64,000 nt of DNA from a virus (taxonomy: Duplodnaviria > Heunggongvirae > Uroviricota > Caudoviricetes): the IMG/VR virus record IMGVR_UViG_3300026560_000023; one strand, given 5' to 3'. The notes beneath the pieces are model-generated. The model was not told where the DNA came from. It worked only from the letters and a program-made list of their open reading frames with translations, and made no database searches. The translations under genes were made by a program, and so were the position numbers. Below, piece by piece: positions 18,865 to 20,405 of the stretch; the first letter of the stretch is position 1, and each line of letters starts with the position of its first letter.

Positions 18865-18989
18865 TTTCAGGCGCAATGGTTAATACAGGCACATGGCTCA
18901 TACTAAATGGGTCAGGCGGTGCAACTCCGTCAAGCCTGTGCCGACGCCTCACGGTACAGGGGTAGCGCCCCTAAATCACCGCTATGCGC

Positions 18990-19062
18990 GGGCCGGCAGT
19001 TCACCTGGTAGAACGCCTGCTTTGCAAGCAGGAGGCACCGAGTTCAAGTCTCGGCTGGTCCA
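18990..19062 (+). tRNA. tRNA-Ala (anticodon TGC)
   Basis: D-arm GTTC/GAAC; anticodon stem CCTGC/GCAGG with loop TTTGCAA; T-arm CCGAG-TTCAAGT-CTCGG. Confidence 0.7.
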
Positions 19063-19065
19063 TAC

Positions 19066-19138
19066 GGGGAATTGGTGTAGCTTGGTATCATACGGGCCTT
19101 GGGTGCCCGCGACCGAGGTTCAAATCCTCGATTCCCCA
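19066..19138 (+). tRNA. tRNA-Pro (anticodon TGG)
   Basis: Acceptor GGGGAAT/ATTCCCC; anticodon stem CGGGC/GCCCG with loop CTTGGGT; T-arm CGAGG-TTCAAAT-CCTCG. Confidence 0.7.
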
Positions 19139-19210
19139 CTCGCAACCGACGTAAAATAACCTACGGTACAACAAATATAGCGTAAGAGGCGCTCTGTCGT
19201 CGGTTGCCGT

Positions 19211-19298
19211 GCCGTGGTTGGGTTAGGCAAACCCGGCTTGCTTGCTAAGCAAGCGCTCCTGAAAGATGGGGCAGAAGGTTCAAATCCTTCCCCCGGCG
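19211..19298 (+). tRNA. tRNA-Ser (anticodon GCT)
   Basis: D-arm GGGT/ACCC; anticodon stem GCTTGC/GCAAGC with loop TTGCTAA; long variable arm; T-arm GAAGG-TTCAAAT-CCTTC; one acceptor mismatch. Confidence 0.6.
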
Positions 19299-19309
19299 TA
19301 AATATTCTA

Positions 19310-19663
19310 ATGGGATATTATTGCCCGTTTTGTGGAGAGGAAGCATACTGGGGACACCGAGATTACAAGTGTTGCAATAACGATTGTCACAATCACGGAG
19401 AGAAAATCTTCGGAGTCCTCCGAACAAATCGAACCCACGAAGAGGTTATCCAAGATGCCGCAGATGACAGAGACATTGACGTGCAAATCAACGAGGTAGA
19501 GAAAGAGCTTGTTGATGACAGCGTTACTCTGTATCGAATTAAGACTGAAATCGACGGAGAACCATTTGGATTTGAAATCAAGAAAAATGGAATGCGTATT
19601 TTCGAGGTAGGTGTGGAAGTCTTGTTCGATAACATGGAAGAAGCAGTCAAGGCTCAGTCATAG
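19310..19663 (+). CDS. Zn-finger protein
   Basis: ATG at 19310 after the tRNA; CPFCGEE ... CCNNDCHNHG (the track ORF 19214 overlaps the tRNA). Confidence 0.45.
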   Translation: MGYYCPFCGEEAYWGHRDYKCCNNDCHNHGEKIFGVLRTNRTHEEVIQDAADDRDIDVQINEVEKELVDDSVTLYRIKTEIDGEPFGFEIKKNGMRIFEVGVEVLFDNMEEAVKAQS

Positions 19664-19680
19664 TCGGTATATTTATTATA
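19662..19680 (+). promoter_or_regulatory. Promoter motif AGTCGGTATATTTATTATA
   Basis: TATA box at 19672-19678; drives the anomalous unit 19681-19980. Confidence 0.45.
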
Positions 19681-19915
19681 AACTCTGCCGTTGGGTAATC
19701 CAGGAGGTCGCAACAGACTGAAATGCTCTACGGCACTTATATGAAAAGAGGCGTAGATGCTATGACCTCTCGAAGGAATACGCCTCAGTACACTGTAGAG
19801 ATACTGGACGTAATAAGGTCCCTAAGTTTATACCTAAAAGCGTTCCAAGGCTCTATAAAACGGCAGAGCGGTCGGGAACGCCCGGCGGTCGCTGGTTCGA
19901 TTCCAGCTTCCTTCT
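19681..19915 (+). ncRNA. Anomalous structured element with a tRNA-like T-arm and acceptor pairing (intron-bearing tRNA, tRNA remnant or novel ncRNA)
   Basis: T-arm GCTGG-TTCGATT-CCAGC followed by TTCCTTC, which pairs with GAAGGAA 130 nt upstream; 8-bp long-range pairing CTCTGCCG/CGGCAGAG; GTCGGG-AACG-CCCGGC hairpin; no canonical anticodon arm; bounded by a promoter motif and a terminator-like hairpin. Confidence 0.35.
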
Positions 19916-19949
19916 AATAATGATTGAAACACTAAGAATGGTTGTGAAG

Positions 19950-19980
19950 ACGAGGACATCACCTTCGTCCTCGTTTATAG
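19950..19980 (+). terminator. Hairpin plus T-tract, terminator-like
   Basis: ACGAGGAC-(9 nt loop)-GTCCTCGT followed by TTTAT, immediately upstream of tRNA-Ser(TGA). Confidence 0.4.
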
Positions 19981-19984
19981 AAGT

Positions 19985-20074
19985 GCCGTCGTAACTGTAG
20001 TCTGGTAACAGCCCCGGTTTGAGACCGGGTTACCCGCATCAAGCGGGTCACAGGTTCAAATCCTGTCGACGGCG
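19985..20074 (+). tRNA. tRNA-Ser (anticodon TGA)
   Basis: Acceptor GCCGTCG/CGACGGC; anticodon stem CCCGG/CCGGG with loop TTTGAGA; variable-arm hairpin CCCGC/GCGGG; T-arm ACAGG-TTCAAAT-CCTGT. Confidence 0.75.
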
Positions 20075-20080
20075 TACATT

Positions 20081-20100
20081 TTCGGTATATTTATTAGATG
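20081..20100 (+). promoter_or_regulatory. Promoter motif TTCGGTATATTTATTAGATG
   Basis: The TATA box ends 28 nt before stem-enclosed element c. Confidence 0.45.
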
Positions 20101-20192
20101 CCACGCTAACGATAGAGTATAATGGTTCAGCTCCGTAAGCGACCTAAACGGGCTCTTGCTAATCGCAAGTAGATACTGAACCAATCCCTTTT

Positions 20193-20266
20193 GCCTACCG
20201 GTCCCGCTTGGTGCGGGAATCTGGCTGTTGACCAGAATGCGCGAGGTTCGACTCCTTGGGTGGGCG
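20193..20266 (+). tRNA. tRNA-Asn (anticodon GTT)
   Basis: Acceptor GCCTACC/GGTGGGC; D-arm TCCC/GGGA; anticodon stem TCTGG/CCAGA with loop CTGTTGA; T-arm CGAGG-TTCGACT-CCTTG. Confidence 0.7.
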
Positions 20267-20270
20267 TAGT

Positions 20271-20344
20271 GGGCCGGGAGCAAATCAAGGTGATGCGCCG
20301 GGCTTTTAACCCGGTTGTGGTGGGTTCGATTCCCACTCGGCCCT
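20271..20344 (+). tRNA. tRNA-Lys (anticodon TTT)
   Basis: Acceptor GGGCCGG/TCGGCCC; anticodon stem CCGGG/CCCGG with loop CTTTTAA; T-arm GTGGG-TTCGATT-CCCAC. Confidence 0.7.
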
Positions 20345-20405
20345 TTGGGACCGGAGCCTCACAATAGGCAGGATTAACCAATTTCGGAGGCGCAAGGTCC
20401 CTCGC

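Follow-up and report, generated by a model that had tools for sequence, protein, structure and literature searches.

Four different conserved RNA structures in the tRNA gene cluster of an HGTV-1-like haloarchaeal virus, two of which carry stretches complementary to 16S rRNA

Viruses with large tRNA sets reshape host translation, and the non-tRNA parts of viral tRNA clusters have hitherto been ignored. The question raised by this locus was what those parts might encode in a 64,000-nt stretch of viral DNA (the window), which derives from an HGTV-1-like haloarchaeal tailed virus and contains 30 tRNA genes, all on the same strand, together with a viral RtcB ligase gene. An original prediction, made from the sequence of the window, had singled out four elements among the tRNA genes (a to d), each a perfect inverted repeat around an interior of 43-46 nt, and had suggested that they might be processing signals, small regulatory RNAs or RNA decoys.

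The four perfect inverted repeats were all confirmed, positions included (Table 1). The 64-kb window contained 90 perfect inverted repeats with arms of 6 bp or more around a 43-46-nt interior; the tRNA spacers (830 nt) held five distinct examples (a, b, c, d and 21298-21355) versus approximately 1.2 expected at the window rate, a roughly four-fold enrichment that was moderately above chance. Folding z-scores were -2.4 for a, -3.3 for b (range -3.3 to -3.6), -1.9 for c and -3.6 for d, and the value for c was -3.1 when counted from the likely transcription start. Individually, b, with its 10-bp stem, and d were convincing; a and c were marginal when taken alone.

The interiors had been described as sharing short motifs. 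MAFFT gave no meaningful alignment of the four elements, and both the shared motifs and a single RNA family for a to d were rejected on this basis. Conservation and covariation in related genomes had been proposed as a check; when relatives ranked by RtcB identity were examined, homologues were identified for every element and their helices covaried. The elements appear to be four different small RNAs, each conserved in related viruses. The elements were free of substitutions in the near-identical copies (L001, L002, L027-31, L036-37, L040, L329, L332 and L333), which were uninformative. BLAST analysis of the whole region against 50,697 phage records matched only the tRNA genes of unrelated phages. 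A neighbouring PD-(D/E)XK protein was also tried as a route to relatives; it gave merely five matches, none of them useful.

The covarying helices included G·U pairs, which placed the RNA structures on the plus strand, since a G·U pair that alternates with A-U or G-C would be a C-A mismatch on the other strand. These data supported the view that the elements are non-coding structured RNAs on the strand of the tRNAs. They also bear on whether the elements act as palindromes at the DNA level, either as protein-binding or recombination sites or as the footprints of mobile elements between tRNA genes. Perfect inverted repeats can form in DNA too, and the modules are found in different tRNA contexts in each virus (d follows tRNA-Asp in HGTV-1 and is flanked here by tRNA-Lys(UUU) and tRNA-Lys(CUU)). 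However, several of the conserved pairs are either G·U or change between G·U and A-U or G-C and would form only in plus-strand RNA, the loops are conserved and not the arms alone, and target-site duplications were absent. An explanation at the DNA level is highly improbable.

A conserved viral promoter motif recurs through the window, with further copies at 10193, 10785, 11435, 14391, 15272, 15937, 19657 and 20075; within the tRNA-spacer stretch it was present only at 18745, 19657 and 20075. Elements a, b and d lie between tRNAs at distances of 2-78 nt, and c lies between a promoter and tRNA-Asn. The distance of about 28 nt that had been noted between a TATA box and c was upheld: c starts approximately 27-33 nt after the TATA-like part of the motif at 20075-20107. 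Because of this motif, c is probably the 5' leader of a tRNA-Asn / Lys / d / Lys transcript, in agreement with the suggestion that it led an Asn/Lys transcript. The second tRNA-Lys gene of this unit (CUU anticodon) was missed by ARAGORN at default settings and was recovered with a relaxed threshold. All four elements appear to share transcription unit and strand with the tRNAs and to have no promoter or terminator of their own, which is the arrangement of small RNAs derived from the spacers of tRNA operons.

Table 1. Positions of the predicted RNA elements, adjoining tRNA genes and promoter motifs in the window.
Feature	Coordinates	Strand	Description
Conserved viral promoter motif	18745..18777	+	GTCGGTAGATTTATTATATAC; repeat families D5, D9, D16; heads the tRNA-Asp / a / tRNA-Ala / tRNA-Pro / b / tRNA-Ser unit
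tRNA-Asp(GUC)	18791..18865	+	3' processing would set the 5' end of the a-spacer RNA
a, closing stem	18888-18893 / 18937-18942	+	GGCACA / TGTGCC; interior 43 nt
a-type H2	18909..18937	+	GGGU/GCCU plus 6-bp stem, invariant 7-nt loop UGCAACU; consensus structure and covariation from the window, L022, L032/33 and L165
a-block	18943..18958	+	GACGCCTCACGGTACA (16S-pairing block GACGCCUCACGGUAC); identical 16/16 in HGTV-1, L022 and L165, 12-13/16 in L032
a-type H3	18958..18972	+	AGGGG-UAGCG-CCCCU; covaries (AGAGG-UGGCG-UCUCU in L032)
a-type conserved tail	18972..18983	+	UAAAUCACCGCU; its ACCG pairs with CGGU of the a-block
tRNA-Ala(UGC) and tRNA-Pro(UGG)	18990..19139	+	3-nt gap
Element b	19142..19207	+	10-bp closing stem GCAACCGACG (19142-19151) / CGTCGGTTGC (19198-19207); interior 46 nt
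b, A-rich strand	19152-19159		UAAAAUAA
b, lineage-specific insert	19160-19178		
b, hairpin	19179-19193		AGCGU-AAGAG-GCGCU, then CUGU
tRNA-Ser(GCU)	19210..19299	+	5' processing would set the 3' end of b
Promoter motif upstream of c	20075..20107	+	Repeat family D5
Element c	20124..20182	+	7-bp closing stem GGTTCAG (20124-20130) / CTGAACC (20176-20182); interior 45 nt; two inner hairpins
tRNA-Asn(GUU) and tRNA-Lys(UUU)	20192..20344	+	
Element d	20347..20401	+	P1 GGGACC (20347-20352) / GGTCCC (20396-20401), interior 43 nt; internal loop GGA/GCAA; P2 20356-20360/20387-20391
d, apical loop	20361-20386		26 nt
d-block	20366..20381	+	AGGCAGGATTAACCAA (16S-pairing block GGCAGGAUUAACC), in the apical loop; identical 16/16 in HGTV-1
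tRNA-Lys(CUU)	20406..20478	+	Rfam tRNA 40.1 bits; 5' processing would set the 3' end of d

All of the tRNAs that adjoin the elements were complete and had normal scores. Furthermore, L341 (RtcB 66% identical) had the same tRNAs, separated by spacers of 3-13 nt, and none of a to d; since this virus keeps the same tRNAs without them, the elements are dispensable. Nothing in the data points to the elements replacing the signals that RNase P or tRNase Z recognizes.

Searches with models of known RNAs were carried out on all four elements. Rfam, at gathering and permissive thresholds, returned only tRNAs from the window, five relatives and HGTV-1. The tRNA model (RF00005, cut-off 29 bits) had no match over a to d even at E ≤ 10, and ARAGORN with introns allowed found nothing credible in the elements at three thresholds, including a relaxed one. 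In agreement with the original prediction of no C/D box, the motif RUGAUGA was absent from both strands between 15165 and 22630; the sole CUGA was that in the closing stem of c (20176-20179), and the 16S-complementary stretch of c ended 15 nt upstream of it. With regard to box H/ACA RNAs, the a-block ends in ACA, but it matches 16S over an uninterrupted 15 nt, and the predicted fold has no pocket-shaped internal loop. Inspection of the predicted structures showed no bulge-helix-bulge motif, since a, b and c have perfect closing stems and d has a directly opposed 3x4 internal loop, not staggered bulges.

The conserved unit of element a proved to be 18909-18983, which differs from the element as first delimited: the closing stem that is present here was not kept in homologues L022 and L032, and the key block lies just outside the original boundaries. 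Homologues were found in L022 (86% identity over 81 nt), L032/33, L165 and HGTV-1. Both hairpins, H2 and H3, had changes on both sides of their helices; in H2, inner pair 2 changed from GC to AU and inner pair 3 from GU to AU. The helix between the tail and the a-block (alignment columns 78-81/125-128) was kept in L165 through a GC to GU change. The 5' part of the a-block was predicted to be looped in all homologues, and in HGTV-1 most of the block was predicted to lie inside a 9-bp hairpin. BLAST analysis of the a unit against the 50,697 phage records returned noise, the pattern scan detected L165 only, and scans with the 15-mer and 14-mer blocks returned L165 among matches that were mostly due to chance. 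An origin of the a-type unit from the host 16S-23S spacer was considered and rejected; Haloarcula spacers have a hairpin with the same loop (GGGUGCAACUCCC), but the likeness extends over only 11 nt (p ~0.03).

Element a had been thought to have no T-loop. In fact, its conserved hairpin H2 has a T-loop-like loop and resembles a T-loop or tRNA minihelix, which raises the possibility that a to d are remnants of tRNA genes, or tRNA-like t-elements providing extra RNase P or tRNase Z cleavage signals, a reading close to the earlier processing-signal idea. H2 is a 10-bp irregular helix with the 7-nt loop UGCAACU, and the T-loop of the viral tRNA-Lys(CUU) is UGCAAAU; the elements are 55-66 nt long and are placed where a tRNA could fit. 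There is also a haloarchaeal example, since a tRNA-like element upstream of the Haloferax 5S rRNA is a tRNase Z signal (PMC4326828). However, neither the tRNA model nor relaxed ARAGORN recognized any of the four elements, a T-loop-like hairpin is missing from b, c and d, the complete flanking tRNAs need no added signal, and conservation sits mainly in loops that are not tRNA-like. A tRNA-like origin is improbable.

Element d has a homologue of the same architecture in HGTV-1 (L021 2282-2218, minus strand). Between these two sequences 4 of the 11 stem pairs were compensatory and 21 loop positions were identical; MAFFT had misaligned P2 of the d-type, so the pairs were counted on a manual alignment. 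The mean probability that the d-block is unpaired was 0.69 here and 0.65 in HGTV-1. BLAST analysis against the 50,697 phage records found HGTV-1 at E = 2, where the element is unannotated, and pattern scans of IMG/VR and JGI metagenomes detected only the virus itself, HGTV-1 and chance matches; the d-type is known from two lineages only. Bacterial Ro, Y RNAs and RtcB are linked, for example in the Salmonella rsr-yrlBA-rtcBA operon, and HGTV-1 encodes both a TROVE-domain protein and RtcB. Like Y RNAs, d has a terminal stem formed from its two ends and a large loop; between them lie an internal loop and a second stem. On this reading d, perhaps with the a-type, might be a Y-RNA-like partner of a viral Ro60/TROVE protein. 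Unlike Y RNAs, the elements matched no Rfam Y-RNA family at permissive thresholds in the window, the relatives or HGTV-1. A TROVE homologue was not detected by tblastn within the 64-kb window, which is part of the virus's genome, and the TROVE gene of HGTV-1 is approximately 14 kb from the spacer. Y-RNA-like partners are quite improbable.

Homologues of b follow tRNA-Pro in L025/L026, which do not have the insert, and in L023/L024, whose closing stem differs (GCCGGG/CCCGGC); the pattern scan for b found the virus itself only. Element c has homologues in L023/24, and the L023 copy (8594-8647) is directly upstream of tRNA-Asn and has a 10-bp stem (GUUCAGCCUC/GAGGCUGAAC). The 16S match of b is absent from its homologues and is probably due to chance. 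The match of c, which is buried in stems (P(unpaired) 0.15), is not kept in homologues either and probably also arose by chance.

Comparison of the spacers of the window with HGTV-1, whose RtcB is 44% identical, revealed only two identical blocks of at least 16 nt, the a-block and the d-block. Both were antisense to real haloarchaeal 16S rRNA, although of species that may not be the virus's own host. The a-block is perfectly antisense over 15 nt to 16S positions ~994-1008 (Haloferax numbering), in the helix 34/35 region of the head, and the d-block is antisense at 20367-20379 to 16S nt 6-18 (13 bp, one G·U), which make up the loop and the 3' strand of the helix at the 5' terminus, beside the central pseudoknot. 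Duplex energies with 16S were -32 kcal/mol for the a-block and -25 kcal/mol for the d-block. The 15-mer target was present in over 120 genomes, many from haloarchaea or other archaea; in all three haloarchaeal loci checked it was inside the 16S gene. Sense-strand 16S matches of at least 12 nt were absent from the elements, and the complement of either block was not found elsewhere in the window. One spacer of HGTV-1 holds both antisense blocks. The conserved loop of d is 21 nt long, of which only 13 pair with 16S. A conserved 16S-complementary stretch that is predicted to be accessible is present in the a spacer and in d, and not in b or c. In the mature subunit both 16S sites are structured or buried, which leaves assembly intermediates as the only possible targets.

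Chance complementarity to rRNA is common, the window having 173 such runs of 12 nt or more. In shuffle tests the 16S match was reached in 0 of 300 trials for the a-block and in 0-1 of 300 for the d-block. Stretches of 13 nt or more that are antisense to 16S had a background rate of 20 per 128,000 strand-positions, from which the probability of chance occurrence was ~6e-4 per 16-nt block and ~4e-7 for both, these values applying to a hypothesis that was formed after the sequences had been inspected. This background is relevant to the reading that the elements are inert but selected structural spacers, which prevent mispairing with pre-tRNAs, shield ends from exonucleases or pace processing, and whose 16S match is coincidental. 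Several features are consistent with it: the closing stems of b and d enclose the whole spacer, c is at the 5' end of the transcript, the stems of b and c are conserved while their target complementarity is not, chance rRNA matches are frequent, and L341 manages without the elements. However, an insulator needs a stem only, yet conservation here is stronger in the loops than in the stems. The loop of d is identical at 21 positions while 5 of the 11 stem pairs have changed, the a-block is identical at 16 of 16 positions across viruses that differ as widely as their RtcB proteins indicate, and both invariant blocks are antisense to 16S against the measured background. Purely structural spacers are a somewhat unlikely account of the set.

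Two other rRNA-related candidates were rejected. The first was that the region is a minus-strand relic of a 16S gene, given that the four antisense stretches are in reverse 16S order here; it was discarded because HGTV-1 has a different order, the sequences that flank the a-block have no 16S similarity, and the matches of b and c are not conserved. The second was a sense-strand likeness of the 19772-19915 RNA to 23S rRNA; AAGGTCCCTAAG was absent from Haladaptatus 23S.

The reading preferred here, a tentative one a little short of an even call, is that a to d would be four accessory small RNAs in the spacers and leader of polycistronic tRNA units, of which a and d would pair with 16S rRNA or its precursor. 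Because stable closing stems, and complete tRNAs or the transcript start, bound each element, tRNA maturation would release discrete RNAs: tRNase Z would cut after the upstream tRNA and RNase P before the downstream tRNA, to yield products of ~60-125 nt that carry a 5' phosphate and end in a 3' hydroxyl. Element d would then show its invariant 13-16-nt block in the 26-nt apical loop, and the a spacer would show its block in or beside a hairpin loop. The most likely mechanism is that these blocks base-pair with nascent or precursor 16S, so that host small-subunit assembly would be blocked or steered. Elements b and c would be conserved hairpin modules with no convincing target and are most likely structural, c capping the 5' end of the primary transcript and b acting as a protein-binding or insulating module after tRNA-Pro. 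The earlier interpretation fared unevenly: structured RNAs and the leader role of c stood, a single family and substitutes for processing signals did not, and small regulatory RNAs are now favoured for the a spacer and d.

The presence of two spacers with an invariant 16S complement hints that the host ribosome is a target of viral antisense RNAs. It is possible, if less than probable, that HGTV-1-type viruses in general make tRNA-spacer antisense RNAs to host 16S, one to the 5'-terminal helix and one to helix 34/35, and that these form a U3-like viral counterpart that arrests or redirects small-subunit biogenesis during infection. To our knowledge, virus-made antisense RNAs against ribosomal RNA have not been reported earlier, should the pairing with pre-16S be real. 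Factors that act at the 5' end of archaeal 16S are poorly known, and such RNAs would provide a handle on archaeal small-subunit assembly. In any case, the tRNA cluster contains at least four conserved structured RNAs, none of them in Rfam. A survey of archaeal tailed viruses (PMC8651126) covers the tRNAs and RtcB and not these RNAs, and the homologous spacer in the HGTV-1 record (52,169-52,305, NC_021328) is unannotated. Both HGTV-1 and its host, Halogranum sp. SS5-1, are cultured, which opens the idea to direct testing.

Several known systems resemble the one proposed here. The tRNA cluster of phage T4 includes two stable RNAs, species 1 and 2 (rnaC/rnaD), which are co-transcribed and co-processed with the tRNAs. 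Like them, a to d are virus-encoded small RNAs inside a tRNA gene cluster; in contrast, the sequences are unrelated and the T4 host is bacterial, and we know of no report that the T4 species are complementary to rRNA. The E. coli 3'ETS-leuZ is reportedly derived from glyW-cysT-leuZ, depends on Hfq and sponges small RNAs, as Lalaouna and colleagues are said to have found in 2015. It too is a non-tRNA part of a polycistronic tRNA transcript that is released by tRNA processing and base-pairs with another RNA, as is proposed here, but it is bacterial and chromosomal, whereas the present elements are viral and archaeal, have long closing stems and have rRNA as candidate target. In murid gammaherpesvirus 68, the TMERs consist of a tRNA-like unit and pre-miRNA hairpins, and tRNase Z frees the regulatory RNAs (PMC4838037). 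The hairpins here likewise come directly after a viral tRNA unit; unlike the TMERs, which depend on RNA polymerase III and the microRNA pathway, they are flanked by real tRNAs and involve no microRNA machinery. In Haloferax volcanii, RNase P and tRNase Z excise a functional 66-nt RNA (icrRNA) from between tRNA-like elements (PMC4326828). That haloarchaeal release route is the processing route proposed here, although the Haloferax cases are an artificial construct and a 5S rRNA leader, and the cargo was a crRNA, not an rRNA antisense. U3 snoRNA, a box C/D RNP, pairs with the 5'-terminal small-subunit rRNA and with a second site in the precursor and controls the central pseudoknot. Unlike U3, the elements have no C/D boxes, are viral and not cellular, and have helix 34/35 as second site in place of the 3' strand of the pseudoknot. 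Like U3, d is complementary to the 5' end of 16S, at nt 6-18, and both antisense blocks are carried by a single spacer in HGTV-1.

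All 29 tRNA genes called by ARAGORN were located on the + strand, in the region 10,116-21,500. A thirtieth gene, tRNA-Lys(CUU), which has an unusual T-loop (UGCAAAU), scored 40 bits in Rfam and was found by ARAGORN only at a relaxed threshold, having been missed at the default; with it, the set comprises 30 tRNAs that serve all 20 amino acids. The RtcB RNA ligase gene lies inside this cluster, and the best named relatives of its product were from Halogranum tailed virus 1 (HGTV-1) and the Haloarcula HCTV viruses (42-44% identity). A strongly conserved promoter-like motif, (A)GTCGGTATATTTATTATATAC, was present at ten sites (10193-20107), at the head of each tRNA or small-ORF unit, and also in three contigs from relatives (L022, L023 and L025); the tRNA cluster is split into transcription units by this recurring motif. 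The G+C content of the window was approximately 48%. Several hypersaline metagenomes contained the same virus at ~99.7% identity; no isolate genome that was close at the DNA level was found by BLAST among 50,697 phage records.

The original prediction described four perfect inverted repeats (elements a to d), and all were recovered exactly where it had placed them. They belong to the transcription units of the tRNAs, share their strand and have complete tRNAs as boundaries. Their folding energies were lower than those of shuffled sequences (z = -2.4, -3.3, -1.9 and -3.6 for a, b, c and d, respectively). Such repeats are common, as the 64-kb window contained 90 that were perfect, had arms of 6 bp or more and surrounded 43-46 nt; the tRNA spacers (830 nt) contained five distinct examples compared to ~1.2 expected, the fifth of which was absent from the original list. 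Given the exact coordinates, the negative z values and the enrichment in spacers, the stem-enclosed architecture is real and moderately beyond chance. The proposal that the interiors share short motifs did not hold, as the four elements did not align with one another; the observation is real but was partly mis-drawn, and the elements are not one family. None matched an Rfam family and, as predicted, there was no C box anywhere near them. Across the whole window RUGAUGA occurred 38 times (~24 expected), nearly always on the + strand and downstream of 22 kb, an excess that is probably a codon-usage effect (GAT GAT or ATG ATG) in + strand genes and not a sign of C boxes.

Features of the tRNA cluster and of related contigs (coordinates refer to the window unless a contig is named; complementarity is given as length, number of G·U pairs and 16S rRNA position)
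Feature	Coordinates	Location or basis	Complementarity to 16S rRNA	Shuffles equal to or above observed run
RtcB RNA ligase	16562-18085	inside tRNA cluster; Pfam
Promoter-like motif GTCGGTATATTTATTATA	starts 10193, 10785, 11435, 14391, 15272, 15937, 18745, 19657, 20075
tRNA-Lys(CUU)	20406-20478
Element a	18888-18942	within 124-nt spacer tRNA-Asp/tRNA-Ala		0/300 (a spacer)
a block GACGCCTCACGGTACA	18943-18958	just 3' of element a as originally drawn	15 nt; 0; 994-1008
Element b	19142-19207	fills 70-nt spacer tRNA-Pro/tRNA-Ser(GCU)	14 nt; 1; 774-787	0/300 vs Haloferax, 9/300 vs Haladaptatus
Element c	20124-20182	between promoter motif 20075-20107 and tRNA-Asn	12 nt; 0; 279-290	7-8/300
Element d	20347-20401	fills 61-nt spacer between both tRNA-Lys genes		0-1/300
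d block AGGCAGGATTAACCAA	20366-20381	apical loop of d	13 nt; 1; 6-18
Fifth stem-enclosed element	21298-21355	162-nt spacer tRNA-Val(UAC)/tRNA-Tyr (21264-21425)
Conserved RNA	19772-19915; L023 ~7795-7947; L032 ~6150-6230	downstream of 19657 promoter, upstream of tRNA-Ser(UGA)
Ala-Pro spacer RNA	L025 ~3885-3990; L032 ~5470-5575	between tRNA-Ala and tRNA-Pro
12-mer CAAUUCCUUUAA	L032 968-979	spacer	836-847 (conserved '915' region)
12-mer GACCUCACUCGG	L165 6778-6789	spacer	~1345
12-nt stretch	L023 2133-2144	inter-tRNA	antisense to 16S
Release factor gene	L023 3819-4871	right after RtcB
'tRNA-Ala (agc)'	HGTV-1 52,081-52,168 (L021 2082-2169)	follows a/d spacer

Relatives were obtained by means of an RtcB search (identities of 77, 68, 66, 65, 59, 58, 50 and 47%), and the order of the tRNA cluster in their contigs was that of the window. 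Every element had homologues, in differing subsets of viruses. For element a the stem was present, but GGCACA/UGUGCC had no counterpart in L022 or L032, and the conserved unit is 18909-18983. This a-type part corresponded to the 3' two-thirds of the Asp-Ala spacer in L022 (86% over 81 nt), L032/L033 and L165, and was kept in part in HGTV-1, likewise after tRNA-Asp. Its consensus structure comprised a hairpin with an irregular helix of 10 bp (GGGU/GCCU and six further pairs) and an invariant UGCAACU loop, a single-stranded segment (GACGCCUCA), a covarying hairpin (AGGGG-UAGCG-CCCCU versus AGAGG-UGGCG-UCUCU) enclosed by the short helix CGGU/ACCG, and a tail (UAUAUCACCGCU). If the elements were decayed tRNAs or t-element-like processing signals, the tRNA-like appearance of the hairpin with the UGCAACU loop would be accounted for; however, it was the only such hairpin, and no match to a tRNA model was obtained.

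Directly after tRNA-Pro, L025/L026 carried the b-type ACAACCGACG-UAAAAUAA-AU-GCGC-UAAG-GCGC-UCUGU-CGUCGGUUGC, without the 19-nt insert of the window and, in L026, with one pair changed to G·U; at the equivalent place in L023/L024 (GCCGGG-UAAGAAAUAAA-AGCGU-GCAGAG-GCGCU-UCC-CCCGGC) the plan was unchanged and the closing stem different. The c-type was located directly 5' of tRNA-Asn in L023/L024 (GUUCAGCCUC...GAGGCUGAAC; 10-bp stem, 31-nt interior, z = -2.6) and was absent from L025. Comparison of element d (GGGACC-GGA-GCCUC-[ACAAUAGGCAGGAUUAACCAA...]-GAGGC-GCAA-GGUCCC) with its HGTV-1 homologue (CUGACG-UGA-GCCAC-[ACAAGGCAGGAUUAACCAA...]-GUGGU-GCAU-CGUCAG) revealed changes on both sides in three of the six pairs of the outer stem, P1, and one of the five of the inner stem, P2, where a further pair had changed from G-C to G·U; 21 loop positions were identical. 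Because stems vary, loops are fixed and G·U pairs occur, this comparison indicates that the elements are structured as RNA, from the tRNA strand, and that their loops are sequence-specific. The G·U pairs contradict the alternative that they are DNA-level palindromes. Inert insulator hairpins would fit b and c, but not the conservation of loop over stem in a and d. Y-RNA-like partners of a viral Ro protein were also considered, given the TROVE gene of HGTV-1; however, no TROVE gene was found within the window, and Rfam gave no Y-RNA matches in the window, the relatives or HGTV-1.

In one related contig, L341 (RtcB 66%), the Asp-His-Tyr-Ala-Met-Pro-Trp tRNAs (1691-2238) are spaced by only 3-13 nt and none of these elements is present. 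The spacer modules are therefore accessory, and this tight packing implies that spacer RNAs are gained and lost between closely related viruses. Modules also change context, d following tRNA-Asp in HGTV-1 and lying between the Lys tRNAs in the window. The homologous HGTV-1 spacer spans 52,169-52,305 of NC_021328 (minus strand). At 88 nt, the HGTV-1 gene annotated as 'tRNA-Ala (agc)' does not look like a typical tRNA-Ala (Rfam tRNA, 47.7 bits).

Identity over 16 nt or more between the window spacers and HGTV-1 was limited to two blocks, those of a and d, and both were complementary to 16S rRNA. The a-block 15-mer was present in >120 genomes, many haloarchaeal or other archaeal and the remainder bacterial assemblies; in Haloferax gibbonsii and Haloarcula amylolytica it fell within the SSU rRNA gene as delimited by Rfam, on the opposite strand. 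The a and d blocks had predicted duplex energies with 16S rRNA of -32 and -25 kcal/mol, respectively. Most of the d block was predicted to be free of pairing in the two viruses; P(unpaired) averaged 0.69 for the window and 0.65 for HGTV-1, and was ~1.0 across most of the central nine nucleotides. In every homologue, the 5' part of the a block was predicted to lie in a loop and the 3' part in a local stem, which in HGTV-1 was a 9-bp hairpin. A decayed rDNA fragment was ruled out as the source of the a block, since its flanks had no 16S similarity, and no complement of either block was found elsewhere in the window. Two Haloarcula 16S-23S spacers (L093 6545-6575; L126 ~2835-2870) contained a hairpin with the a-type loop (GUCGGG-UGCAACU-CCCGAC), preceded by CCCCUCACGGGG, which includes the a-block core; this similarity covers 11 nt only (p ~0.03), so that the link is a weak one.

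A scan of both strands of the entire window against the 16S, 23S and 5S rRNA of Haladaptatus gave 173 antisense runs that were 12 nt or longer and contained no more than one G·U. Short rRNA matches are thus frequent, and finding one 15-mer within 64 kb is unremarkable alone. Runs of at least 13 nt antisense to 16S rRNA numbered 20 per 128,000 strand-positions, so that the chance of one in a given 16-nt block is ~6e-4, and in both blocks ~4e-7; the blocks had been chosen by conservation alone. The same scan gave no sense-orientation matches of at least 12 nt within the elements. The 16S target of b lies in a variable region present in only four of the genomes retrieved, and its antisense stretch sits in an insert missing from L025 and L023. 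The complement of the c target was absent from the L023 homologue, and the stretch in c is buried in stems (P(unpaired) 0.15). The a and d matches were accepted, whereas those of b and c are, on these grounds, probably due to chance. Across seven loci, inter-tRNA spacers made up 5% of the sequence yet contained 16 of 73 antisense runs, the 12-mers of L032 and L165 among them; this excess is suggestive, but is not independent evidence. The 12-nt stretches listed for the spacers of relatives are individually at chance level but fit this pattern.

Other RNAs were observed in these clusters. In a conserved RNA of ~145-165 nt, the 7-bp acceptor-like stem read GAAGGAA/UUCCUUC in the window and CUGAAGG/CCUUCGG in L023. 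Its T arm was canonical (GCUGG-UUCGAUU-CCAGC), its variable arm was long and covarying, and a large conserved insert (AAUAAGGUCCCUAAG, AAAACGGCAGAGC) stood in place of the normal D and anticodon region. Neither ARAGORN nor Rfam called this RNA, which may be tRNA-like or a tRNA that carries an unusual intron. It shares an 11-mer (AGCGTTCCAAG, at 19839) with the Val-Tyr spacer, which has a GCCCGTG direct repeat at both ends and holds the fifth stem-enclosed element (7-bp stem GCUCCAU/GUGGAGC with one G·U; z = -2.2). The conserved non-coding Ala-Pro spacer RNA (GGGCUAUG...GAAGAACAAC(U/C)CCGUCAG...GG(A/G)GUUU) showed compensatory changes (CAACUCC/GGAGUU versus CAACCCC/GGGGUU). The tRNA cluster of L023 (RtcB 65%), like that of L024, also encodes an aRF1/eRF1-like release factor with eRF1_1, eRF1_2 and eRF1_3 domains.

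In the proposed mechanism, the spacer RNA would be freed by two cuts, one by tRNase Z just behind the discriminator base of the tRNA that precedes it and one by RNase P where the following tRNA begins; from d, a 61-nt RNA (20345-20405) would result. Release of an RNA flanked by tRNA-like elements via the RNase P/tRNase Z route is documented in Haloferax (PMC4326828). The d loop and the a block may then pair with nascent 16S rRNA. In the small-subunit structure, nucleotides 6-18 make up the first helix, next to the central pseudoknot, and the region around 1000 is part of helices 34/35, in the head. Neither site is free in the mature subunit, which leaves assembly intermediates as the only plausible targets; pairing would probably block or delay small-subunit maturation. 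No convincing target was apparent for the remaining two elements: c probably caps the 5' end of its own transcript, and in b the conserved A-rich strand and GCG/CGC hairpin may serve to bind a protein.

There is good reason to regard the elements as accessory RNAs, both conserved and structured, that belong to the tRNA operons of haloarchaeal viruses. That two of them act as antisense RNAs against 16S rRNA is a tentative proposal, based on complementarity and conservation. The four RNA families are not in Rfam, the HGTV-1 record has no annotation for them, and they are not mentioned in a survey of archaeal tailed viruses (PMC8651126). The literature searched yielded no account of a virus that encodes antisense RNAs against host 16S rRNA. 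Since the viral spacer RNAs have no C/D boxes, they are not members of the U3 family, but U3 snoRNA is their closest cellular analogue, the likeness residing in the proposed mode of action. RNAs derived from tRNA-operon spacers are already known, namely 3'ETS-leuZ of E. coli and the species 1 and 2 RNAs of phage T4. The TMERs of MHV68 are further small RNAs of this kind (PMC4838037).
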